Source: Escherichia phage AV123. From it: a stretch of DNA of 64,000 nt. Location of the stretch: sequence record OR352953.1, one strand, 5' to 3'. Below the pieces are notes generated by a model. The model ran no database searches. It was not told where the DNA came from and saw only the letters and a program-made list of their open reading frames with translations. The translations under genes and the position numbers were made by a program. Below are positions 794 to 58,455 of this stretch, one piece after another (the first letter of the stretch is position 1; each line of letters begins with the position of its first letter).

Positions 794-2755
794 GTGATTT
801 TAACACGTCCAAATAGTGCCATTGCAGACATGGTAGAGTCTCGCTATAGAAAGCGTAGAAGTTTTGCAAGTGGTTTTACCTTAAGAGATGCTCGTGAAGC
901 ATTGCTCTTTGAAACTGACGGTAACTACTATCAGTGGAAAGGTTCTCTACCTAAAGTTGTACCTGCTAACTCTACTCCTACATCTACTGGAGGGATTTCA
1001 GATACAGCTTGGAAAAATGTGGGTAATGCAGATGACATTGCTCAAATAGAATCAGAATTAGATGCTATTGAAGCTGAAATTGAAGATCTTAGAGAATCCA
1101 TTCCAGAAGCTGGTAAATCAGCTTACCAGATTGCCGTAGACAATGGTTTCCAAGGTACTGAGACAGAGTGGTTGGCTTCTTTAAAAGGTGATCCAGGTGC
1201 TCCATTAAAGCTGCTAGGGACGCTATCTAATACCAACCAATTACCTACAACTGGAAACAATGCAGGAGATGCATGGATTGTAGGCGAGAATATGTATGCT
1301 TGGGATGGTACTGCTTGGAGAAAAGTAAACTCACAGGGGCCAGAAGGTAAATCGGCTTATCAAGTTTGGCTTGCAGCAGGAAACCAAGGTACAGAACTAG
1401 ATTATCTTGCTTCAATTAAAGGTGATAAAGGGGAGCCTGGCCCAGAGGGGCCACAAGGTGTACCAGGTAACAATGCTAATGGTTTTGATTACCAAGGTGC
1501 AGCTAATTCCGTTTCAGATCTTCCTTCTGCATCTCCTGGAAACACATCTCAAGCATGGAATATTGGTACATATCTATACGTGTCAAACGGTGTAGAATGG
1601 ATCAATATGGGCGCTATAGTGGGGCCAAAAGGAGATAAAGGCGACAAAGGAGATAAGGGTAACACTGGTGATTCAGCTTATCAAGTCTGGTTAAACGCTG
1701 GTAACGTTGGTACTATTGACGAATATATTGCCTCTCTGAAAGGAGAAAAAGGTGATAAGGGAGATAAGGGTGATCAAGGTGAGCAGGGTATACAAGGCTT
1801 GACGGGGCCAACTGGTGCAGGGTTGACCATTATTGATATTCTGACTGACACTTCTGAACTACCACAAACTGGAGAAGATGGTGATGGTTATCTGATCAAT
1901 AATGAACTTTGGGTTTGGTTGCAAGGAGCCACACAGTGGACAAATGTTGGTCGTTTAGCTGGTACTCCAATCACTGCAAAAGGACACGTTGCGTCTGCAA
2001 GTGCACTTCCTCCTACATCCAATTACGGTGATGCTTATTTGACGGAAGATACAGGTCATCTTTACATTTACACCTATGATGAACAAACTCAAACTGCTGA
2101 ATATGTAGATATGGGTAGTTTGAAAGGTGATAAGGGTGAGAAAGGTGACGCTGGTACTAACGGTACAGACGGTGCTACTTGGATTGTTAAAACAACAGAT
2201 CCAATCTCTAGTGATGGTAAACAAGGTGATTATGCCTTTAATATCTCCACTGGCGAGGTGTTCTTAAAAACATCTGCAACTGTCTGGACTTCTCAAGGTA
2301 CACTACCTAGCATCACAGATGCACCTAGTGACGGTAAGATCTATGCTCGTAAAGATGGAGCATGGGAAGAACTAACTAGTTCTGTAGATGGTCAAGATAT
2401 AGTTCCAACAAAAGTAACAGCTAATTTTATAGAGGTTACAGCATACACCAACAACTCTGTTACAGGGGACTGGACACCTCCAGGAACACATAACATGAAT
2501 GTGTTGAATCTTACTGGTAACTCTACTATAAAAGCATGGCCTGGTGTCGAAGATAGCACAAAACCTAAACCATTCTCTGCAATAGTTTATCTTATCCAAG
2601 ATGCCACTGGGGGTCATACTGTTACTTTAGATCCATCTTACAAAGTAATTGGTTCTAGTGATATTAATACAGATCCTAACGGAGTAACAATACTACAACT
2701 AACATATTGTGGTGTTGGTGATTACGTGGATGCTATTGTTGCTAAACGCACATAA
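794..2755 (+). CDS. Tail fibre protein with collagen-like Gly-X-Y repeats
   Basis: GTG start 7 nt after AAGGAG; repeated GDKGDKGDKG / GEKGDKGDKGDQGEQGIQGLTGPTG triplets in translation. Confidence 0.75.
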   Translation: MILTRPNSAIADMVESRYRKRRSFASGFTLRDAREALLFETDGNYYQWKGSLPKVVPANSTPTSTGGISDTAWKNVGNADDIAQIESELDAIEAEIEDLRESIPEAGKSAYQIAVDNGFQGTETEWLASLKGDPGAPLKLLGTLSNTNQLPTTGNNAGDAWIVGENMYAWDGTAWRKVNSQGPEGKSAYQVWLAAGNQGTELDYLASIKGDKGEPGPEGPQGVPGNNANGFDYQGAANSVSDLPSASPGNTSQAWNIGTYLYVSNGVEWINMGAIVGPKGDKGDKGDKGNTGDSAYQVWLNAGNVGTIDEYIASLKGEKGDKGDKGDQGEQGIQGLTGPTGAGLTIIDILTDTSELPQTGEDGDGYLINNELWVWLQGATQWTNVGRLAGTPITAKGHVASASALPPTSNYGDAYLTEDTGHLYIYTYDEQTQTAEYVDMGSLKGDKGEKGDAGTNGTDGATWIVKTTDPISSDGKQGDYAFNISTGEVFLKTSATVWTSQGTLPSITDAPSDGKIYARKDGAWEELTSSVDGQDIVPTKVTANFIEVTAYTNNSVTGDWTPPGTHNMNVLNLTGNSTIKAWPGVEDSTKPKPFSAIVYLIQDATGGHTVTLDPSYKVIGSSDINTDPNGVTILQLTYCGVGDYVDAIVAKRT

Positions 2756-25471: not shown

Positions 25472-26188
25472 TTATTTCAGTTTGTAAACAATTACATTTA
25501 AACCTTTGTTTACTAGAGTTTCTTCGATCATAAGTTTTACAATACTCCAAGAACCTCCAGCCAAACCACAACCAAGCATTGGTAAACCTACAATTTTACC
25601 GCCTGAAGATACAACATCGTCTCCCATACTATCTAACGCATTGTAGATAGCTTCATAATTCAGGTCACGCTTACCTTCCTCACGACGACTATAACCATAT
25701 TGTCCATATAAATTATAAATTGTCAAATTGTTTTCTGTATACTTAGTAAACGTACCTAATTTTTTATAATCACCACGTTTAGTGGCACAATCTGCTTTAA
25801 ACGCACCAGGCCACTTACTTTTAATTTTTGGTGCAATACCACTACCCATAGTGCAAAAACAGTTACAGCAGTGTGCTATAGCGTCTATATCGCCTCTCTC
25901 GGCTGCTGCTAAAAGATCACCGTATACCTCAATGATACCTGCTGGATAACTTGTTACAATTTCATCTTCCCAGTACATTTTCTCTACACCACCGATCAGT
26001 GCAAAGTTTTGTGTAATGCGATCATCAATATAGTTAAGACCTGAAACATACACAGCATATTCATCCTGTGCTGTAATACCTTGTACACGAATTCTTAAGA
26101 CACCATCTTTATCTGTTGCTACACGCCCAAAATCTTTTTCTGTAATATTGGTGATAGGATCTCCGAAAGTCATTACTTTATTAGACAT
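25472..26188 (-). CDS. Macro-domain protein (OARD1/TARG1/Poa1-like ADP-ribose processing)
   Basis: IAHCCNCFCTMGSGIA and LPMLGCGLAGGSWSIV...VIVYKL parallel the H-x-C-N...G-x-GIA and GCGLD...VYTL motifs of that macro family; start ATG overlaps upstream stop (ATGTCTAA). Confidence 0.7.
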   Translation of the reverse strand: MSNKVMTFGDPITNITEKDFGRVATDKDGVLRIRVQGITAQDEYAVYVSGLNYIDDRITQNFALIGGVEKMYWEDEIVTSYPAGIIEVYGDLLAAAERGDIDAIAHCCNCFCTMGSGIAPKIKSKWPGAFKADCATKRGDYKKLGTFTKYTENNLTIYNLYGQYGYSRREEGKRDLNYEAIYNALDSMGDDVVSSGGKIVGLPMLGCGLAGGSWSIVKLMIEETLVNKGLNVIVYKLK

Positions 26189-27038
26189 AATAATCCCCTT
26201 TAACATTAGATTTGTTGATAATGTTGCTTTCAAAAAATTGACGTAGGAAATCAAAGTTCTCTTTATATTTTTCAATGTTATTGTAGCCTTCTGCAAGGCA
26301 ACCAAAGAACAGTTGTTCTACATAATACAAAGGAAGCTGTGAAAGTGCAATTTTAAAATCAACTTCGCTTTGACTCATTAGATACTTAATAGGACGAACC
26401 AAACATTTAGCATCAGTTTCTTGCTTAATCATCTTAATAAAAGCTGCCAGGTTATTGATATAGTTGAAGTTAAGTGCAGCTTCGGTGTTGGCTTCTGTAC
26501 CTTCATACTTTGCAAAGTACAGGAAAAACGTATCGTTTTCAACACCTTCTTTGTCTAAAATTTCAATAAGTTTTTCTTCGTGCGTTCCTGTAATATTAAC
26601 ATCATCAATGAAAATCAGAGTTTTATTACCCCAGAAATCACGATTGATAGAGAAAGTGTCACCATCGATCAAAGCCTTACGATCTTCTTTGCTAAGAAAT
26701 CCATAATCATTGATATAGCTCACTTTACGATGAACGATATCCCACTCCACTGGTTTACCACCTTTGATAGAGATTAGGTAGTTGAGGTGATCTACAAAAT
26801 GTTCAGATAACACTGTAGCTGCATTTTTCACATAGTTATATGGAGATGGAATAACAACAAAACTTTCATTTACCAGTCGTTCTTCATACTTGGAAAAGAA
26901 ACTTTCAGCCAGAATGCGCCCCATTCTTTTTGCTGCCTGGTTACTACCAAACTTTAGTTTGGAATAATCTGCAATGTTAAATTTTGCTTCCTTCAGGTTA
27001 GTAAAAGTATTAGCAAAATGTTGAATTTGATTACGCAT
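26181..27038 (-). CDS. Phosphoribosyltransferase-like protein
   Basis: TLIFIDDVNITGTHEE resembles the type I PRTase PRPP-binding loop. Confidence 0.5.
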   Translation of the reverse strand: MRNQIQHFANTFTNLKEAKFNIADYSKLKFGSNQAAKRMGRILAESFFSKYEERLVNESFVVIPSPYNYVKNAATVLSEHFVDHLNYLISIKGGKPVEWDIVHRKVSYINDYGFLSKEDRKALIDGDTFSINRDFWGNKTLIFIDDVNITGTHEEKLIEILDKEGVENDTFFLYFAKYEGTEANTEAALNFNYINNLAAFIKMIKQETDAKCLVRPIKYLMSQSEVDFKIALSQLPLYYVEQLFFGCLAEGYNNIEKYKENFDFLRQFFESNIINKSNVKGDYYV

Positions 27039-27687
27039 TAATAAGTTCCTCTTTTTTAAGTTTAGCCAACAAGTCTTCTGGATTAATAATATGACAGAAC
27101 TTCATCCCTATGTCAACAGCTTTTCCATCATAAATCAAACTATCTCCAACGTGTAAAATCTCCTCTGGTGCGAGATCAAACGTCACCATTTCATCAAAAG
27201 AGAGTTTAAAAAACCTAGGATCTGGTTTACACAAGCAAAACTCGTCAGAAAAATGCATAAAGTCGAATGGTAATTTTGTTAAACCAGAATATACAGCTAA
27301 GAAACTACCTGGTACAAAATTAGTATTGCTCTTAATACTCAAAGAGTAGGTTGAACTTAGCTCTTCCAACTTCTTGCAAAGTTCAGGATTCAATGTTGGA
27401 GGATGTTTTATAAACATTGCCAAACAATCTCTTTTTAACCCATCCACTTTATCAAGATCAATGTTCAAACGAGTAGAAAGTGTTACCCAAGCATCCTTAG
27501 ACGTTCCACAAATGCCTTTTTCTGCTTTTAAATCCAAGAGAGTTTTTACCTCTTTATATACGGTAGCTGCTTCTGCCTCAGAACAAGAGGCATACTCGGC
27601 AATAACCTTGTTACGCTCTTCTGCATACAAAGGGTTAGCAGTAATAAGAGTATTCCATACATCAAAAGAAATATGCTTAACAGTCAT
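27031..27687 (-). CDS. HAD-superfamily hydrolase-like protein
   Basis: ISFDVWNTLI (motif I-like) and HVGDSLIYD (motif IV-like); start set at MTVKH after GGAGG. Confidence 0.5.
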   Translation of the reverse strand: MTVKHISFDVWNTLITANPLYAEERNKVIAEYASCSEAEAATVYKEVKTLLDLKAEKGICGTSKDAWVTLSTRLNIDLDKVDGLKRDCLAMFIKHPPTLNPELCKKLEELSSTYSLSIKSNTNFVPGSFLAVYSGLTKLPFDFMHFSDEFCLCKPDPRFFKLSFDEMVTFDLAPEEILHVGDSLIYDGKAVDIGMKFCHIINPEDLLAKLKKEELINA

Positions 27688-27689
27688 TT

Positions 27690-27845
27690 TTAATCCTCCG
27701 TCCAAAAGAATATCATCTGCTTAATTTTATTGATTTCTTGATGTAGTAACTTTCCAGCATGTGATTGATCTTTAATATTGACAGCAAGAATTTCAAGTTC
27801 CGTTAGTTTTTCTTGGATAGCTTTATATTCATCATCTGTAAGCAT
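27690..27845 (-). CDS. Small ORF (51 aa), not in track
   Basis: AAAGGGGAAG RBS before ATG at 27845; stop abuts HAD RBS. Confidence 0.3.
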   Translation of the reverse strand: MLTDDEYKAIQEKLTELEILAVNIKDQSHAGKLLHQEINKIKQMIFFWTED

Positions 27846-28066: not shown

Positions 28067-28089
28067 AAAGGAGGCTTTCGCCTCCTTTT
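28067..28089 (-). terminator. Hairpin terminator
   Basis: AAAGGAGGCTTTCGCCTCCTTTT. Confidence 0.6.
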
Positions 28090-28094
28090 ATCAC

Positions 28095-29255
28095 TTAGTA
28101 AGAACGACCACCAAACACATACTCTGTGTAGTTTTTACGTTCTTTGTTTTTAATAACAACTTCAATGTTGTTGCCTTTATCATCGGTGAACACAAAGTGA
28201 TAACCGTCACCACCCATTGTACGGATGTGTTTTTCATCATACATCAGCAAGATACGGTCTACACCCCAGTAGTAGTCACCTTCTTCATCTTTATCTTCTA
28301 CGGTAACGACTCCTTCCATTTCAGGAAGATGCTCTTCTCCTAGCTTATGGTCTACAGCTACAACATAACGATTACCGCTAAACAAACCTTGTGCTGTCAT
28401 ACCGTCAATATCGGTATCTGACGAAACATCTCCTGTACGATCTACACCGTTAACTTTCAGAAGTTTAACCTCTTTTGCAGCATAGCGGTGTTCAGTAATA
28501 CTGATACCCATCAATGCAAGTGCATCAGAGAATTTGTCATTAGGGTAACGGTTAAGTTCTTCTACTAATGACTGAACAATATCAAAGTTCAAATCCACGG
28601 AGAGATTATAAAGCGTTTCAAAATCTGGTAAGAAGGCTTTGTTCTCCAGATTTTTAGCCAGATAATCATCCATAGTAGCTTTAGGTAGTTTCTTATAGCT
28701 AAAACTGTAGAAAATACGGCTAGGACGATTACGCAAAAATTCTGATACATAACCATCATTTTTAGTCAATACAAACAGTTTGTCGTAGCCACCAACACCA
28801 TCCAACAGGGTAAGCAAACCATCTTGTGCATCTTTTTCAGCATACAGTTTATCAAATTCATCGATCATAATCATCACAGGTTGTGTGATTTTAGACATAA
28901 AATTGATAAAACCTTCGCCATTAAAAGCACTGCCGATAGAAATAGTAGGAATACCCATTTCACGAAGAGCAGAAGACAGCATTTTAGCTTGCAAAGTTTT
29001 ACCGCTACCTTTCGTACCCTCAAGGAGAACACCTGTGTTTTTACCTTTGCGGCTAAGGAACGTTTTGATAATACGTTCTGATTTATCATCAGTATCACCG
29101 TATGTTACTGAAGGCACTTCCATATCGTTTTTAGGATACAGGAAGAACTCACCACTTTGAGTAACACCTACACCAAAAGTTCCTGCTGGAATTTCTTCAA
29201 TATCTGTACCAGATTTCTGACGCAGGAAGATTTGATTGCCGAATACTGTAAACAT
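28095..29255 (-). CDS. P-loop NTPase (AAA-like), paralog of 43218..44345
   Basis: Walker A GTKGSGKT, Walker B MIMIDEFDK; aligns along its length with the + strand paralog. Confidence 0.65.
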   Translation of the reverse strand: MFTVFGNQIFLRQKSGTDIEEIPAGTFGVGVTQSGEFFLYPKNDMEVPSVTYGDTDDKSERIIKTFLSRKGKNTGVLLEGTKGSGKTLQAKMLSSALREMGIPTISIGSAFNGEGFINFMSKITQPVMIMIDEFDKLYAEKDAQDGLLTLLDGVGGYDKLFVLTKNDGYVSEFLRNRPSRIFYSFSYKKLPKATMDDYLAKNLENKAFLPDFETLYNLSVDLNFDIVQSLVEELNRYPNDKFSDALALMGISITEHRYAAKEVKLLKVNGVDRTGDVSSDTDIDGMTAQGLFSGNRYVVAVDHKLGEEHLPEMEGVVTVEDKDEEGDYYWGVDRILLMYDEKHIRTMGGDGYHFVFTDDKGNNIEVVIKNKERKNYTEYVFGGRSY

Positions 29256-31560: not shown

Positions 31561-31584
31561 AAAAGCCAGCATTAAGCTGGCTTT
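31561..31584 (-). terminator. Hairpin terminator
   Basis: AAAAGCCAGCATTAAGCTGGCTTT. Confidence 0.55.
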
Positions 31585-40980: not shown

Positions 40981-41271
40981 ATGAACATCACACTAGCAAC
41001 TAAGAATATTACAGAAACTTTCGATGGTTTTGGCATTATTATTGCTGTTCATGGGCATAACGAAAAATGGTTAGCCTCTTTTGAAGAGGACAAAGAACGC
41101 AATGTACGTTTGAATGCACCAATCAAAGTTTTACACCAGGTAGGTGAGAATAAGAAACAATGGAGATCATACAAAGAGTGGAACATTACAAACGAATTAA
41201 TACACAAACTTGACAAAGTGCTAAACATGTTCGACAATGCACCAAGCAGTGCAAAACGTGTTTTACTATAA
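40981..41271 (+). CDS. Hypothetical protein
   Basis: ORF with AGAGG RBS. Confidence 0.5.
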   Translation: MNITLATKNITETFDGFGIIIAVHGHNEKWLASFEEDKERNVRLNAPIKVLHQVGENKKQWRSYKEWNITNELIHKLDKVLNMFDNAPSSAKRVLL

Positions 41272-43217: not shown

Positions 43218-44345
43218 ATGAAATACACGATTTATGGTGATATTGTAAGTGTAAATAAAGATATGGGCGTGGAATCTAACTATCTTCCACCTGGATTCTA
43301 TACTGTTAGTCGTGATCCCCTTGGCAATTACTTTTTAAGCCGTGGTAATCTAACAGGTGTACCGGATGTTCTGTATGGTGAAACAGAAAAACGAGCAAAT
43401 CACGTTATTCGTACATTCCATCGCCGGAGTGCACAAGGTAAAAATACAGGTTTGCTCCTGACAGGCACTAAGGGCAGTGGTAAAACTATGTTAGCCAAAC
43501 TCATTAGTCGTGACCTTGTAGAAGAAGGTATTCCAACTATTATGGTTACTCAAGCCTACAGCGATGCTAATTTCATTGAACTTATTAGCAAGATCACCGA
43601 CAAAGCAGTGATTATTTTTGACGAGTTTGATAAAGTATATGAGAAGAAACAAGATCAAGAAGCACTTCTCACTTTGTTAGATGGTACTGGCAGTGGTAAT
43701 AAACTGTTTATTCTAACTAAAAACAGTGGCTTTATCTCTGAATTCTTTCTAAATCGTCCTAGTCGTGTGTTTTATAATTTTAATTATGATAAAATCTCAC
43801 TAGAAACTATGATTGACTATTTAGATAAAAACCTGGATAACAAAGCACACTTTGATAATTTCCAAAGGCTTTGGGATGTAAGTTTAGAGTTGTCCTTTGA
43901 TGTGATCCAAGGTATAGTAGAAGAACTTAATTTCTACCCTGATTTATCCTTTAAAGAATGCATCTCTATGATGGGCGTTTCTTTGGGTGGTGGTAATAAG
44001 TGGGATATCAGCAGCGTTGTTATTAATGGGAAACTTCAGAAAGTTAGCTGGGTATCTAGTTGGCATAACTTCACACCTGCAATCTTTTTAGGTGGCTCGT
44101 GCACACTAGACGTGTACTTGTCATCTCCAAGTGATGCAGACTCTAAAGAAGCCCTTGCTAATAGCTCTTACGTGGTTTTTGATGATGAAGGAGATGCTCG
44201 AATTCCATTGAATGCGACAAAAATGAAAGCAGATCTTATTACAGGCGGTAAAATCGTTGTGTTTAGTGATGATCCAGAAGATTCTTTCCGTATTGTTCTG
44301 GAACCAACTATCACCAATGGTGCAACTTTGGCAAGCGTGTTTTAA
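43218..44345 (+). CDS. P-loop NTPase (AAA-like), paralog of 28095..29255
   Basis: Walker A GTKGSGKT, Walker B IIFDEFDK; LLTLLDG and NRPSR segments shared with the - strand paralog. Confidence 0.65.
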   Translation: MKYTIYGDIVSVNKDMGVESNYLPPGFYTVSRDPLGNYFLSRGNLTGVPDVLYGETEKRANHVIRTFHRRSAQGKNTGLLLTGTKGSGKTMLAKLISRDLVEEGIPTIMVTQAYSDANFIELISKITDKAVIIFDEFDKVYEKKQDQEALLTLLDGTGSGNKLFILTKNSGFISEFFLNRPSRVFYNFNYDKISLETMIDYLDKNLDNKAHFDNFQRLWDVSLELSFDVIQGIVEELNFYPDLSFKECISMMGVSLGGGNKWDISSVVINGKLQKVSWVSSWHNFTPAIFLGGSCTLDVYLSSPSDADSKEALANSSYVVFDDEGDARIPLNATKMKADLITGGKIVVFSDDPEDSFRIVLEPTITNGATLASVF

Positions 44346-44360
44346 GTAAGCCAGCAAATA

Positions 44361-44388
44361 AAAACCCGCTCCGGCGGGTTTTCTTGTA
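44361..44388 (+). terminator. Hairpin terminator
   Basis: AAAAACCCGCTCCGGCGGGTTTTCTT. Confidence 0.65.
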
Positions 44389-44419: not shown

Positions 44420-45409
44420 ATGACAGCACCAAAATCATGGGAACAATATAAAGAAGAGTGTATACCAATAGCAGAGAGTAAGCAAATCCAAATCTTAGGA
44501 TGGACGGGACAATGGAAAGGGGTCCACACAAAACTTGATTTGTTGTGCCATTGTGGTTATAAATGGGATACTACAAGTATTAACAGTTTTAAATGTGGTA
44601 GCGGTTGTCCACAATGTAGGAGGAAGAATATAAGGAAGTCACAAACAATGTCCGACGATCAACATATTGCAGATTTCTTTTCTACAGGGGAATTTAAGGA
44701 AGGCACTATCTTCACTAACACAGGAACACGGGGTAAAGGATGTAGGAATATTATCTGGATGGTTGAATGTCCTGTTTGCTCTCATGATGAATATGTTCAA
44801 GCAGGTGTTTGTGATGGTAAATTTTACTCTGAAGGAGATAACCTTAAACGAGGGTATATTCCGTGTCGTTGTGGGAACTATCGGTATACAGAAGACCAGA
44901 TCACCTATAGGGTAAAAAAGGAAGTAGAAGGGAAAGGGTATGTCTGGGTAGATTGGATTACCAAACCCTCTTCTATAGGTAAGTTTAAATATCTTTGTCT
45001 TGTGCATGGTGAGCAGATAGGGAGTGCTAATAATTTATTAAGCCTCGGTCGAGGTTGTCCTATGTGTGCTGGTCATAGTCAGCAGCAGTTATATATTAAT
45101 ATTGTTAAGGATGATAATATTATAGTTGCTCTTAAGTTTGGTATAGCTAAAGATAGTGATAGGCGATTAAACATTCAAAATAGCCGTAATCTGTTTTTTA
45201 TGGAACGTATTTGTTTATATGATTTTAGCACAGTGAAACAGTGTAAGGCTGCTGAAAGAGCTATAAAGAAAAAATTAAAAACTGGTATTTTAACAGCAAG
45301 AGAGTTGAAAGACGGTCATACAGAAACAGTAAGTGTTTCTGATTTGGAAAATCTTCAAAAAATTATTACACAATATGGTGGCAAGTTAGTATACAATAAG
45401 GAGGTGTAA
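44420..45409 (+). CDS. Multi-zinc-ribbon protein with C-terminal T5orf172 (GIY-YIG-like) type region
   Basis: At least four CxxC pairs; C-terminal LYINIVKDDNIIVALKFGIAKDSDRRL resembles T5orf172 core. Confidence 0.4.
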   Translation: MTAPKSWEQYKEECIPIAESKQIQILGWTGQWKGVHTKLDLLCHCGYKWDTTSINSFKCGSGCPQCRRKNIRKSQTMSDDQHIADFFSTGEFKEGTIFTNTGTRGKGCRNIIWMVECPVCSHDEYVQAGVCDGKFYSEGDNLKRGYIPCRCGNYRYTEDQITYRVKKEVEGKGYVWVDWITKPSSIGKFKYLCLVHGEQIGSANNLLSLGRGCPMCAGHSQQQLYINIVKDDNIIVALKFGIAKDSDRRLNIQNSRNLFFMERICLYDFSTVKQCKAAERAIKKKLKTGILTARELKDGHTETVSVSDLENLQKIITQYGGKLVYNKEV

Positions 45410-45961
45410 ATGCGGATTACTGATAAGTATGTGTTCTTCTTTTCAGCAAAAGATGAATTTAGCAACTGGTATCTATCATCTTTTATTGAACCTTTAGCAC
45501 CCAAGTATAATAATTCTATTACAAGTTCTGTTGAATTTACTTGTGTGGAACAATATATGATGTGGAGAAAAGCATGTTTGTTTTATGATTACAGTATTGC
45601 ATCTTCTATTTTAACCGGAGATCTAAGATATACAGGAGAAAAAGAACAAGCATATTATAAGCGACTAGGCAGATTAGTTAAAGATTATGATGAAGATACC
45701 TGGACTTCTTTACGGGAGAAGATTGTCAAACGTGGTTTGTATCTTAAATACACACAAAATGAAGATCTCAAAAATAAACTTATAACCTACGCAGATAAGG
45801 AGTTCGTAGAGGCAAGCCCTTATGATTCTATTTATGGTATCAAAATGGGGATGTGGGATCGTGACGTGGAAAATAAGGACTGTTGGAAAGGACAAAATCT
45901 TTTAGGAAAATGGCATACAGACCTTGCTGTTTATCTAAAAGCACAATCTGATATTTCCTGA
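45410..45961 (+). CDS. NADAR (YbiA-like) domain protein
   Basis: FFFS...SNWY...F...EQYMMWRKA...LGRLV...EASPYDSIYGIKMG...GQNLLGK matches NADAR signature blocks. Confidence 0.65.
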   Translation: MRITDKYVFFFSAKDEFSNWYLSSFIEPLAPKYNNSITSSVEFTCVEQYMMWRKACLFYDYSIASSILTGDLRYTGEKEQAYYKRLGRLVKDYDEDTWTSLREKIVKRGLYLKYTQNEDLKNKLITYADKEFVEASPYDSIYGIKMGMWDRDVENKDCWKGQNLLGKWHTDLAVYLKAQSDIS

Positions 45962-46177
45962 TATTTTGAAAATTTTTATTTTTATAAAAAGGGGTGTGGG
46001 TTTCATGTACGGAAATTCACCCTCTGAATAATATATTCAGAGTAAATATTATTTTGTACTCTGTTAATAAATTATTTAATTTGTTTGTTGGATTATGATA
46101 TCTGGTTTTTAAAAGGCATACTATCTCTTAACTACTATTTATAACAGAACAGTAAAATCATTTTTATAAAAAGGACA

Positions 46178-46390
46178 AAATTATTTAAAGTTTTTACAGA
46201 TTTTTGGATACAAATTTTGAAAATGAAAAGTTCAAGTTTGGTCAAAATTATTTAAAGTTTTTGTATGTATTTCTATCCAGATTTTGAAAATGAAAACTTC
46301 AATTTTTTAAAAATTCCCCAGTTTATTTAAAGTTTTTTTGCCTTTTTCCGTAGAAAAATCAAAAATGAAAAGTTCAATTTCGTGTTTTTA
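46178..46390. repeat. Three tandem direct repeats (66-78 bp units)
   Basis: AAATTATTTAAAGTTTTT...TTTTGAAAATGAAAAGTTCAA recurs at about 46178, 46244 and 46320. Confidence 0.6.
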
Positions 46391-46394
46391 TAGG

Positions 46395-46510
46395 TGTGTT
46401 AATGAGAATCATTTTCGTTTGTAAATGAGAATCATTATCATTTAACTATGTAAGTGATAATCATTCTCACTAAGAGAATGAGAATCATTAGCAAATGAGA
46501 ATTTTTCTCA
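46395..46510. promoter_or_regulatory. Cluster of Fur-box-like palindromes
   Basis: AATGAGAATCATT (46401), AATGAGAATCATTATCATT (46424-46442), GATAATCATTCTC, and perfect inverted repeat AATGAGAA-TTT-TTCTCATT (46492-46510). Confidence 0.5.
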
Positions 46511-50328: not shown

Positions 50329-50556
50329 ATGGCTATCGTTATTGTTCGCGTATCCGGTACGGTTGGAAGCTCCCAGGTAGTAGCAGTTATCACAGAGAAG
50401 AAAGGGGATGATCTTCACTCCTCCTTGAATAGCTGGGCGGTCGCTAACTTTGGGCAATGGTCGAGCGTTGAGTACATCGAATCCTACCAGGTGCCAACGA
50501 TTAGCCTAACCGATCTAAATGTTGATCGCTTGTTGTGCCTGGATCAATTAAACTAA
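50329..50556 (+). CDS. Hypothetical protein
   Basis: AAAGAAAGG leader. Confidence 0.5.
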   Translation: MAIVIVRVSGTVGSSQVVAVITEKKGDDLHSSLNSWAVANFGQWSSVEYIESYQVPTISLTDLNVDRLLCLDQLN

Positions 50557-50564
50557 AAATAATA

Positions 50565-50620
50565 TTGACAAGATAACTAAAATCAGTAAAATGTAATGCA
50601 TAGGGCGGCAATAGTGCCGC
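50565..50620 (+). promoter_or_regulatory. Promoter plus leader hairpin
   Basis: TTGACA 50565-50570, TAAAAT, hairpin GCGGCAATAGTGCCGC. Confidence 0.5.
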
Positions 50621-50643
50621 TCCTAGTGAGAGAGATTATCAAG

Positions 50644-53434: not shown

Positions 53435-53496
53435 TTGACAGCACACCTAACAGATAGTATATTGTATCTCATAGAGCGGGGAAATGGTTTCCCCGC
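53435..53496 (+). promoter_or_regulatory. Promoter plus leader hairpin
   Basis: TTGACA 53435-53440, TATATT, hairpin GCGGGGAAATGGTTTCCCCGC 53476-53496. Confidence 0.6.
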
Positions 53497-57737: not shown

Positions 57738-58241
57738 TAACTATAACAAGAAATATAATTCGCAAGCGTATCATTAGCAGCCTATGCCGGACACATAGGC
57801 GGCTAATAATAACGCAACTACACACCCCACATAATAACCATCACCGATAGTTATTATTTGTGCTTATGTAGCTTGCAACAATTGCAAGCGCAACAATATA
57901 CTAGGGTATATTGTATCCCTTACATTGTTGCGGTGCGTTATTATTAGCTAATGTTTAGAACATTGGCTATAATATAAGCTATCCAATAATAAACATGGTG
58001 AATAATGACACTGATGATCATAATGCGCCACCCTCCAGGGGGCGCTATGTGAACACAAAGAAATCTTTCTTGTCAAGAAAAATATCACCATTATTGCGCA
58101 AAATTATTTATATCTGAATAGATGATTTTTCATACTATTGCCCCCTTGATTATTACCATTTGTTGAGCCTACTTTCTTAAAAGCGCAATAAAATAGAATT
58201 ATATTGATTTTTAGTCGGTTTTATAGTACAGAAAGTATGCA

Positions 58242-58455
58242 AATGATAATCATTATCAGCTATCTTCCACGGGTGGCACTATTTCACACCAGATCATTTC
58301 ATTTGGCAAGGTGTATATAGATGTTTAGACTTGCCAAGCCATTGATTTCCTTAGAATTTATCTGTTTTGTTGTGAGTAGTACCTTTCTTGCTTAGAAAAT
58401 AATCAAAAGTCTTATAAGTCATTGAATGATAATACAAATGATAATTATTCTCATT
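58242..58455. promoter_or_regulatory. Fur-box-like sites upstream of the 58.8-kb gene block
   Basis: AATGATAATCATTATC at 58242-58257 (16/16 to positions 4-19 of GATAATGATAATCATTATC); AATGATAATTATTCTCATT at 58437-58455. Confidence 0.5.

Follow-up and report, generated by a model that had tools for sequence, protein, structure and literature searches.

The classical AAA ATPases (p97/Cdc48 D2, FtsH, NVL/Rix7, Bcs1 and NSF D2) are the closest described relatives of the two phage proteins considered here, copies A and B, and provide their best sequence, profile and structural matches. The classical proteins and the phage family have in common the Walker A (GxxGxGKT) and Walker B (hhhDE) motifs, an 'LLTxxDG' helix, the sensor-1 Asn, RPGR-type arginines, and a lid of four helices that lacks a sensor-2 arginine; an aromatic-x-Gly position of the family aligns with pore loop 1 of p97 D2. 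As points of difference, A and B contain one AAA module of only ~200 residues and no protease or other fused domain. A second set of described proteins, DnaC/DnaI, IstB, Hda/DnaA and the clamp loaders, resembles the family in its frequent location in replication modules, its compact AAA core with few insertions and weak HMM similarity, although the helical insertion that is specific to the initiator clade is absent from the structural model of A. A third comparison is with the crAss-like phages, whose replication block has four conserved genes, among them that of an 'AAA+ superfamily ATPase', ATP_43b (PMC7886860). The crAss-like protein cr52_1 gp38 matches the profile of the family over the N-terminal domain, AAA core and lid (hhalign 99.8%, E 5e-30), and its position between primase and exonuclease suggests that it is ATP_43b. 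The crAss-like members are shorter (259-306 aa), with a C-terminal domain that is reduced or absent.

A pair of ATPase genes on opposite arms

The window, the whole stretch of 64,000 nucleotides from Escherichia phage AV123 (OR352953.1), comes from a Justusliebigvirus (phi92-like) genome and contains two genes of this kind, each an ORF at the position given:

43218..44345, + strand, copy A, AAA+ ATPase of 375 aa
28095..29255, - strand, copy B, paralogous AAA+ ATPase of 386 aa

Both ORFs are real, with the coordinates and strands of the initial annotation, and a good Shine-Dalgarno sequence precedes each. They lie 14 kb apart on opposite strands and, as had been proposed, in separate modules, these being oppositely oriented arms that flank a divergent region at ~41.0-41.3 kb. 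A is situated in a presumably early arm of small ORFs, and B in the replication/nucleotide-metabolism arm, directly after nrdD-nrdG and between UvrD/NrdDG and the primase-helicase/DNA polymerase genes; this type of arm is the usual place of many family members in other phages.

The paralogy of the two proteins is borne out by BLASTP, which aligns residues 3-256 of A with 2-253 of B with 119/254 identities (47%), 70% positives and an E value of 2e-81, and by hhalign for the C-terminal domains. The initial annotation had extended the relationship along the whole length; this holds in direct alignment for the first ~255 residues, but the last ~120 are left unaligned by BLASTP and correspond at the profile level only. 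The A-type and B-type C-terminal domains align over 101 columns with 72.5% probability (E 3e-5), and the probability rises to as much as 94.5% and 95.8% by way of an intermediate clade (P0024-29). By part, identity in the family alignment is 28% in the N-terminal beta domain, 56% in the AAA alpha/beta core, 45% in the lid and 21% in the C-terminal domain. Since the N-terminal domain, core and lid are all shared, the similarity goes far beyond a generic P-loop, and a resemblance confined to that motif is ruled out. All five of the sequence blocks on which the paralogy was originally argued are present in both proteins, the fifth reading YLDKNLDNKA in A and YLAKNLENKA in B, and the full set of catalytic residues is kept in each. 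Exact coordinates were fixed for GTKGSGKT, (I/M)(F/I)DEFDK, LLTLLDG, NRPSR(V/I)FY and the sensor-1, pore-loop and lid FD motifs, and the principal parts of A are:

43218..43382, + strand, small N-terminal beta domain, aa 1-55, with five strands (model secondary structure)
43464..43487, + strand, Walker A GTKGSGKT, aa 83-90 (G83, G86, G88 and K89 invariant in 112 sequences)
43554..43565, + strand, pore-loop-1-like motif A-Y-S-D, aa 113-116 (aligns with p97 D2 MWFG)
43614..43634, + strand, Walker B IFDEFDK (D135 and E136 invariant)
43665..43685, + strand, LLTLLDG helix, the classical-AAA 'ILTEMDG' segment (HMM alignment to p97 D2, conservation)
43716..43775, + strand, sensor-1 N169 and second region of homology NRPSRVFY (aligned to p97 D2 RPGR)
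43794..43979, + strand, four-helix lid, aa 193-254 (model helices; F227, D228 and N238 invariant)
43980..44318, + strand, C-terminal beta-rich domain, aa 255-367 (the fastest-evolving part)
44319..44342, + strand, C-terminal tail GATLASVF, residues 368-375, disordered, with an aromatic end (pLDDT <50)

The corresponding parts of B are:

28995..29018, - strand, Walker A GTKGSGKT, aa 80-87
28917..28928, - strand, pore-loop-1-like motif A-F-N-G, aa 110-113
28848..28868, - strand, Walker B MIDEFDK, aa 130-136
28707..28766, - strand, sensor-1 N166 and second region of homology NRPSRIFY (R177, R180)
28122..28502, - strand, C-terminal beta domain, aa 252-378, remotely homologous to that of A (hhalign, alignment)
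28098..28121, - strand, C-terminal tail YVFGGRSY, with an aromatic end

A compact member of the classical AAA clade

The family was at first not recognised, but it is identifiable as PHROG 2376, 'ATPase', and as classical AAA. A matches PHROG 2376 with an E value of 6.6e-108 (its residues 1-367 aligned to positions 1-357 of the 363 in the profile) and B with 3.9e-104 (residues 1-376 on positions 2-359); the two score 38.9 and 29.4 bits, respectively, against PF00004, for which the cut-off is 21.2, and the family profile finds its best match in p97/Cdc48 D2 (E 3.5e-13). By these three lines of comparison, PF00004 above its cut-off, PHROG 2376 at full length and the p97 D2 profile match, A and B are classified as classical-clade AAA+ ATPases. 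Four of the five blocks noted above correspond to standard motifs of classical AAA proteins, namely Walker A, Walker B, an LLTEMDG-like helix and RPGR-type arginine fingers; the remaining one, YLxKNLxNKA, lies in the lid and matched no named motif. K89, D135, E136, N169, R180 and R183 (A numbering) are invariant among 112 family members, and the family consensus for the second region of homology is NRPGRIFY. The sensor-1 asparagine is followed 11 and 14 residues on by the two arginines of the (N)RPGR motif, a spacing that is the same in FtsH. No sensor-2 arginine is conserved in the lid, as judged by conservation across the 112 sequences and the helices of the model. NCBIfam and PADLOC scans gave sub-threshold P-loop matches only.

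The pore region departs somewhat from that of p97. The family consensus for pore loop 1 is P-[FWY]-x-G, with an aromatic residue at position 114 in 94/112 sequences and G or D in 105/112. The loop is shorter than that of p97, and A has an Asp where the p97-type Gly stands, the alignment here being by sequence and the model that of a monomer; the pore-loop-2 segment is ~13 residues shorter than in p97 D2 in the profile alignment. In the classification of Erzberger and Berger, a short helix between beta2 and alpha2 is said to be the insertion that defines the classical AAA clade. The AF2 monomer model of A (pLDDT 89.7) has no extra helix between these elements, strand 107-110 leading through six connecting residues to helix 117-125, and A as modelled is a reduced version of the classical-clade fold.

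The flanking domains are less familiar. No Pfam or NCBIfam model matches the N-terminal 55-residue beta domain, in which G7, P24, L40, Y53 and G54 of A are conserved across the family, and none of the solved structures in the PDB is related to the C-terminal beta domain. Of 96 non-redundant family members, 51 end in F, Y or W, compared with an aromatic background of 11%, and the tail of the family has the motif [FY][ND][WYF]xxA[F]. Proteins that bind sliding clamps, and those with HbYX-type tails, carry short consensus motifs of their own, and we considered whether the tail might be either; the endings of A (...ASVF) and B (...GRSY) and the family motif fit neither consensus. An orthologue of A is labelled 'FtsH-like protease' in GenBank MZ501100, a label that is unjustified given that the protein has neither a protease domain nor any other domain fused to it: a Pfam search at E<=1 gave no match to Peptidase_M41 or any other protease, and the AF2 model of A has no N-terminal transmembrane helices of the FtsH type.

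A large phage family and an old split

PHROG 2376 is very large, phage-specific, uniform in architecture and already catalogued. With clustering at 50% identity, 1,083 clusters reach E<=1e-30, and the best 150 of their representatives are mostly ~340-460 aa and aligned from the N-terminus to about residue 255. The three-domain architecture is kept family-wide, with full-length BFVD matches at TM 0.6-0.8. Members are found in Stephanstirmvirinae, jumbo phages, Herelleviridae, Sextaecvirus and crAss-like phages, and literature searches returned no functional study or experiment on any of them. The pair in this genome is a modest curiosity, its genes being catalogued, duplicated long ago and already annotated as 'ATPase' in many of the examined public records. 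Of broader interest is that a large, uniform, phage-restricted and uncharacterised family recurs in replication modules, those of crAss-like phages included.

The two copies have different distributions. A is present as a syntenic single copy in Phapecoctavirus, where it is 64.5% identical, and on this comparison it represents the ancestral Stephanstirmvirinae locus, held in common with Phapecoctavirus. B is found in 54 records at >=95% identity and in five Klebsiella-phage records at ~75%; it is absent from the syntenic site of the Phapecoctavirus phAPEC8, and a metagenomic B-type relative, 57% identical, is syntenic downstream of UvrD/YqeY. Two paralogues per genome are particular to Justusliebigvirus and its Klebsiella-phage relatives, most other records searched having one detectable copy.

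The distance between A and B (47% identity) is about the same as that of either from the jumbo-phage homologues (46-48%). Neighbor-joining bootstraps group A, B and the intermediate clades together in only 62.5% of replicates, compared with 0.5% for B with the jumbo-phage proteins and 6% for A with them, and the intermediate P0024 group joins A in 40% and B in 47%. These distances and groupings point to an ancient split and reject a recent duplication. Each protein has its own orthologues, with strong constraint on the motor; B and its Klebsiella-phage orthologue are 93% identical in the AAA core and 50% in the C-terminal domain.

Plausible roles of the two copies

The reading we favor, and regard as probable, is that A and B are stand-alone, single-ring AAA+ motors of the clade that includes FtsH, p97 and Bcs1, with diverged specificity domains and most likely with different targets or partners. 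Each protein would assemble into a ring, most likely a hexamer, in which ATP bound at the Walker A and B motifs of one subunit would be hydrolysed with the help of the arginine fingers of its neighbour (R180 and R183 in A). The aromatic residue of the pore loop (Y114 in A, F111 in B) would grip a macromolecular substrate that is pulled apart or remodelled, although threading of a polypeptide is not assured, because pore loop 2 is shorter, the beta2-alpha2 connection is short and A has Asp for Gly. Gene neighbourhoods of the family are heterogeneous and point to no constant partner, the 14 contexts compared, from annotated phages and metagenomic contigs, having no neighbour in common. Choice of target or partner would come from the small N-terminal beta domain and the flexible, aromatic-ended tail, together with the C-terminal beta domain, which evolves rapidly. 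The combination of identical motors and diverged specificity domains is what argues for different targets. The sub-functionalisation suggested in the initial annotation is therefore plausible as a divergence of the terminal domains, which have drifted to 28% (N-terminal) and 21% (C-terminal) identity while the motors were kept. The two copies could have arisen by ancient duplication or by ancient acquisition from a related phage lineage.

A different role, which we think unlikely, is that of a replication accessory factor that acts on DNA or the replisome as a loader or initiator does, instead of unfolding proteins, with B as the replication version and A as a spare or regulatory one. B sits among the replication genes as described above, and comparable arrangements occur in several unrelated groups of phages: in Sextaecvirus (helicase-primase-RNaseH-RecJ-x-ATPase-HJ resolvase), in the crAss-like cr52_1 and cr130_1 (primase-(resolvase)-ATPase-exonuclease) and in an Acinetobacter phage (primase/helicase-PolA-ATPase); ATP_43b belongs to the conserved crAss-like replication block (PMC7886860), and some sources name family members 'DNA replication protein'. 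Replication/recombination modules account, however, for four or five of the 14 contexts, and early small-ORF regions, that of copy A included, for about half or more of those sampled. There are also weak matches to Hda (3.9e-7), the DnaC-like PRK08116, IstB, and the PHROG clamp-loader and DnaC-like loader families, but these are far under the curated cut-offs and lie mostly in the Walker A region only. Membership of the DnaC/IstB/Hda clade was rejected on these scores (Hda 29.8 bits against a cut-off of 194.8, PRK08116 27.5 against 189, IstB 19.9 against 200), the best sequence and profile matches being to classical AAA proteins, of which the RPGR-type motif in the second region of homology is typical. 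Neither the helical insertion of initiators nor a sensor-2 arginine nor the collar domain of clamp loaders is present. The clamp-loader clade (gamma/tau, RFC and T4 gp44) was rejected likewise, in that the domain after the lid is beta-rich rather than a helical collar and the motif is RPSR/RPGR rather than SRC; PHROG clamp-loader matches reach only 1e-8 compared with 6.6e-108 for PHROG 2376. The 70 kb examined of the relative genome include no annotated sliding clamp, the examined relatives have neither a sliding clamp nor a clamp loader among their annotated genes, and the helicase is fused to a primase.

A broader proposal we put forward only tentatively and consider doubtful: PHROG 2376 may be a widespread minimal AAA remodelling machine tied to genome replication, the job having been split in Justusliebigvirus between the early arm and the replication arm. 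Such a machine might, for example, strip or reload replisome or nucleoid proteins, with the variable C-terminal beta domain and aromatic tail docking the target. If true, this would explain what one member of the conserved four-gene set in the crAss-like replication block does. A genetically tractable E. coli phage with two diverged copies is a convenient entry to what the motor acts on.

The possibility that A and B co-assemble in one hetero-oligomeric ring, as do Pex1/Pex6, the Rpt subunits and FtsH/FtsHi, seems to us improbable, and would mean that duplication gave two subunits of one machine rather than two machines. Both proteins keep the trans-acting arginine fingers and all of the catalytic residues, the motor domains are still 56% identical, and wherever B was seen in a lineage with complete or near-complete genomes it was accompanied by A; these lineages are Justusliebigvirus, the Klebsiella phi1_175008 group, and those of metagenomic contigs 151,530 and 154,881 bp long. 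The converse does not hold, however, as A occurs without B in ~77 Phapecoctavirus-type records and the great majority of other records searched have one detectable copy; moreover the two genes lie in different arms, on opposite strands and 14 kb from each other, and each is followed by its own terminator-like hairpin.

A role in counter-defence or host takeover, in which one or both copies dismantle host complexes such as immune-signalling assemblies, as Trip13 does HORMA complexes, is likewise improbable, in that the Trip13 score is no different from those of dozens of other AAA proteins, PADLOC gave nothing meaningful, adjacency to nrdDG and ADP-ribose-type genes is not conserved, and so large, uniform and widely conserved a family, present even in the crAss-like replication block, would be unusual for anti-defence genes.

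Transcription signals and the nrdDG neighbourhood

The suggestion of an early and a middle version of the protein fits the gene positions. Literature searches found no transcriptome for Stephanstirmvirinae. Consensus scans for promoters and terminators gave match counts equal to those of shuffled controls, and for terminators we report only the two clean hairpins directly past the A and B stop codons, together with two sigma-70-like matches:

41210..41238, + strand, sigma-70-like promoter match TTGACA-17-GACAAT in the divergent intergenic region (consensus scan; matches at chance level)
44361..44382, + strand, terminator-like hairpin AAAACCCGCTCCGGCGGGTTTT with a T-rich tail, 16 nt past the A stop codon
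29363..29391, - strand, sigma-70-like 11/12 match TTGACA-17-TATGAT inside nrdG, ~108 nt upstream of the B start
28067..28088, - strand, terminator-like hairpin AAAGGAGGCGAAAGCCTCCTTT followed by ATTTAT, 6 nt past the B stop codon

The match in the divergent region is a candidate for the start of a rightward unit in which A is the seventh gene. The match inside nrdG is a possible internal promoter for B, in a region where match counts are those expected from shuffled sequence. We also considered nrdD-nrdG-B as a three-gene unit bounded by hairpins and rejected it, the linkage not being kept in relatives. The 57%-identical relative has the UvrD/YqeY synteny without nrdDG, and phAPEC8 has nrdDG without B, so the association of B with nrdDG is incidental.

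Two diverged copies of a reduced AAA ATPase

The window encodes two ATPases, copy A and copy B, on opposite strands, and a clean hairpin lies 6-16 nt past each gene:

43218..44345, + strand: copy A, 375 aa, good ribosome-binding site
44361..44382, + strand: GC hairpin with T-rich tail, 3' of the A stop codon
28095..29255, - strand: copy B, 386 aa, good ribosome-binding site
28088..28067, - strand: GC hairpin with T-rich tail, 3' of the B stop codon

The two proteins are 47% identical (70% positives) over 254 residues by BLASTP (E 2e-81) and share all five motif blocks quoted in the initial annotation, such that the paralogy proposed there is borne out and the similarity is clearly not confined to the P-loop. 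Exact coordinates were fixed for four of these blocks and for the sensor-1, pore-loop and lid FD motifs. The further proposal that the similarity extends along the whole length holds by BLASTP for the 254 residues; the final ~120 residues give no BLAST alignment, and homology of the C-terminal domains is recovered by profile comparison, either directly (probability 72.5%, E 3e-5) or through an intermediate clade of homologues, P0024-29 (94.5-95.8%). Identity is 28% in the N-terminal domain, 56% in the AAA alpha/beta core, 45% in the lid and 21% in the C-terminal domain. The 8-kb stretch round A is 95-98% identical to genomes of Justusliebigvirus, the phi92-like E. coli myophages of the subfamily Stephanstirmvirinae, and the A and B proteins are each 98-100% identical to Justusliebigvirus proteins.

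Matches to PHROG 2376 ('ATPase') span both proteins from end to end (A, E 6.6e-108; B, E 3.9e-104), and both exceed the gathering score of Pfam AAA (PF00004). The best PDB matches of a profile built from 112 relatives are classical-clade AAA proteins (p97/Cdc48 D2, VAT, NVL, AFG2 and Rix7; E 3.5e-13 to 1e-8), and because this alignment spans Walker A through the RPGR motif, four of the five blocks, which had not been assigned to a family, are canonical AAA motifs. The fifth, YLxKNLxNKA, lies within the lid of both copies and has no named AAA equivalent.

Canonical AAA motifs (residue numbers of copy A)
Walker A: GTKGSGKT, in A and B
Walker B: DEFD, in A and B
LLTLLDG helix: in A and B, counterpart of p97 ILTEMDG
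Sensor-1: N169, then NRP(S/G)R, in which R180 and R183 are invariant

A pore-loop-1-like P-[FWY]-x-[GD] motif is also conserved (aromatic in 94 of 112 sequences), and the lid contains an invariant F-D pair resembling the SGAD segment found in classical AAA proteins; the conserved columns of the family include no sensor-2 arginine. The pore-loop-2 segment falls ~13 residues short of its p97 D2 counterpart, and relative to textbook classical AAA proteins the beta2-alpha2 connection is predicted to be short and without an extra helix, and copy A has an Asp at the usual pore-loop Gly position. The helix between beta2 and alpha2, a structural hallmark of the classical clade, is not seen in the predicted model. 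A and B are thus members of the AAA+ superfamily and, as judged from their sequence motifs, a reduced version of the classical clade. One GenBank label for an A orthologue, FtsH-like protease, can be rejected because a protease domain and a membrane anchor are absent, and tests of membership in the DnaC/Hda and clamp-loader families were negative for both copies.

Domain architecture and a conserved C-terminus

Domains of copy A in the predicted model
Residues 1-55: five-stranded beta domain
Residues 56-192: AAA alpha/beta core
Residues 193-254: four-helix lid
Residues 255-367: beta-rich domain
Residues 368-375: disordered tail

This three-domain layout recurs at full length (TM 0.6-0.8) in predicted proteins of Erwinia, Salmonella, Agrobacterium, Proteus and Lactobacillus phages. 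Across the family (proteins P0038-P0120), the extreme C-terminus is unexpectedly conserved given the highly variable domain before it, and in AlphaFold2 models of copy A it lies in a disordered tail. Of 96 non-redundant members, 51 end in F, Y or W (aromatic background 11%) and ~79 in a hydrophobic or aromatic residue, which is often contained in the motif [FY][ND][WYF]xxA[F]. The tail of copy A (44319-44342) ends in ASVF, that of copy B (28098-28121) in GRSY, and that of the jumbo-phage clade in MFDGK; no known docking motif fits the tail.

Two gene arms

From the annotation of relatives, a divergent region is placed at ~41.0-41.3 kb. The leftward arm contains small ORFs, an intein-containing UvrD-type helicase, a tRNA-synthetase-like gene, YqeY, NrdD, NrdG and copy B, followed by HAD/PRTase/macrodomain genes, glycosyltransferases, a primase-helicase, DNA polymerase and Dam methylase. 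In the closely related phage PaulScherrer, two proteins of this arm are annotated as intein-containing precursors, namely the helicase of UvrD/Rep type and the DNA polymerase (relatives' loci L001, 8886-11660, and L013, 11716-15030). Downstream of B, the minus strand (26181-27705 and beyond) encodes a HAD-type hydrolase, a ComF-like phosphoribosyltransferase (PRTase_3, E 1.5e-41) and, from a relative's annotation, a macrodomain protein; these may form an ADP-ribose or nucleotide-modifying cassette, and phAPEC8, of the Phapecoctavirus type, has the same cassette lacking copy B. We also note a terminator-like hairpin at 31562-31584 (-) (AAAGCCAGCTTAATGCTGGCTTT plus a T run) that overlaps the first listed nrdD start codon (31572). 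The true start is probably a Met further downstream, and nrdD-nrdG-B would therefore be bracketed by hairpins.

In the rightward arm, six small ORFs precede copy A, and beyond it come genes for a CapR/T5orf172 nuclease and a NADAR-domain protein and then many small ORFs, each with its own promoter-like element and hairpin; promoter assignments are tentative, since consensus matches occur at shuffled expectation. The two genes next after A (44420-45961, +) specify a protein of 329 aa, which combines two CapR-homology zinc-ribbon stretches with a T5orf172 nuclease domain, and a NADAR-domain protein of 183 aa (Pfam E 1.7e-25 and 5.8e-36), the latter annotated in one relative as a 'YbiA-like N-glycosidase'.

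Origin of the pair

A syntenic orthologue of copy A (64.5% identity) is present, as the sole copy, in ~77 Phapecoctavirus-type records, from which B is absent; the NrdD-NrdG-small ORF-hydrolase-HAD-PRTase-like region of phAPEC8 is collinear with the window, with only the B gene missing. Klebsiella phage phi1_175008 and related metagenomic contigs have B-type (~75%) together with A-type (~74%) orthologues. Loss of B from Phapecoctavirus and its gain in the Justusliebigvirus/Klebsiella-phage lineage may both be considered. The adjacency of B to nrdDG is incidental, because a 57%-identical B-type gene lies 3' of UvrD and YqeY without nrdDG.

Bootstrap support (neighbour-joining tree, 200 bootstraps)
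A clade plus the P0022 group of homologues: 100%
B clade: 100%
A, B and two intermediate clades: 62.5%
A plus jumbo-phage group: 6%
B plus jumbo-phage group: 0.5%

Core identity is 47% between A and B and 46-48% between either copy and jumbo-phage homologues. Together with the bootstrap values, these sequence comparisons indicate that the A/B split is old, and that it probably falls inside this phage lineage. Among orthologues the motor is strongly constrained and the C-terminal domain fast-changing, as judged from identities of 93% (core) and 50% (C-terminal domain) between B and its Klebsiella-phage orthologue, and of 77-87% and 34-62% among A orthologues.

Family distribution and possible roles

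Of 1.84 billion cluster representatives searched exhaustively with phmmer, 3,295 matched at E<=1e-10 and 1,083 at E<=1e-30; the best 150 are mostly ~340-460 aa long, and their alignments run from the N-terminus as far as about residue 255. Annotated phages that carry the family include Stephanstirmvirinae, GAP32/BF-type and Erwinia jumbo phages, Salmonella phage 7-11, Aeromonas, Acinetobacter and Proteus phages, Herelleviridae, Sextaecvirus, Lactococcus 949-type and crAss-like phages, with the Sextaecvirus ATPase (100%, E 3e-45) and crAss-like cr52_1 gp38 (99.8%, E 5e-30) placed in it by profile comparison. Many of the public records examined already label the genes 'ATPase', and PHROG 2376 already groups them; the window holds a paralogous pair of its members. 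The size of the family makes its function worth solving.

No neighbour gene is constant across the contexts compared. Four or five groups carry the ATPase gene inside a replication/recombination module, among them:

Sextaecvirus: helicase-primase-RNaseH-RecJ-x-ATPase-resolvase
crAss-like cr52_1 and cr130_1: primase-(resolvase)-ATPase-exonuclease
Acinetobacter phage: primase/helicase-PolA-ATPase

Yutin et al. (PMC7886860) count an 'AAA+ superfamily ATPase' (ATP_43b) as one of four genes that are highly conserved in the crAss-like replication block, and from gene position only we infer that cr52_1 gp38 corresponds to it. Other sampled contexts place the gene among small early ORFs. We regard a replication loader-type function for the family as unlikely.

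By sequence, A and B retain all residues required to bind and hydrolyse ATP and for arginine-finger catalysis between subunits, as well as the pore-loop aromatic. We propose that each would form a ring-shaped motor that remodels or unfolds a macromolecular target, with the tail and the two terminal beta domains conferring specificity, B being the putative replication-arm version and A the early-arm version. Ring assembly, substrate and timing are the inferred parts of this model. The shortened pore loops make a non-threading, switch-like or loader-like action possible. Since the motor is common to both and the N- and C-terminal domains and tail differ, the simplest reading is that A and B act on different targets or partners. 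The shared motor would also suit a single hetero-oligomer of A and B, which we consider improbable for genes placed in separate arms, and it is similarly doubtful that one or both copies are a counter-defence disassemblase.

Other sequence features

The E. coli Fur consensus is GATAATGATAATCATTATC. Against this sequence, five Fur-box-like matches occur at <=3 mismatches (0.03 expected), with sites at 46398, 46421 and 46474 lying within ~95 bp (46398-46492) and a near-perfect palindrome at 58239-58257; a repeat scan gave further related copies at 58005 and 58432. These matches suggest host iron-responsive regulation of some early phage transcription units. Directly 5' of the cluster, in a gap without long ORFs, are three tandem AT-rich repeats of ~70-79 nt (46160-46380) that may be a regulatory or origin-like region.

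Between 47565 and 56382 (+), many small early ORFs are preceded by a repeated unit consisting of a sigma-70-like promoter, ~10 nt and the GC hairpin GGCGGGAAATGGTTTCCCGCC, reminiscent of the promoter-early stem-loop units of T4-type phages; one example has a TTGACA-17-TAAAAT promoter (50555-50622). Matches with <=3 mismatches occur at six loci (47587, 50286, 51166, 53843, 55488 and 56346; 0 expected), with variants at 53457, 54052, 54392 and 54667, and the equivalent region of phAPEC8 has annotated promoters predicted by PHIRE and MEME. Finally, collagen-like Gly-X-Y coding repeats (AAAGGNGAYAAR units) are present at 1112-2175 (+), in a gene that is the counterpart of the PaulScherrer 'lateral tail fiber protein with type I collagen domain'.
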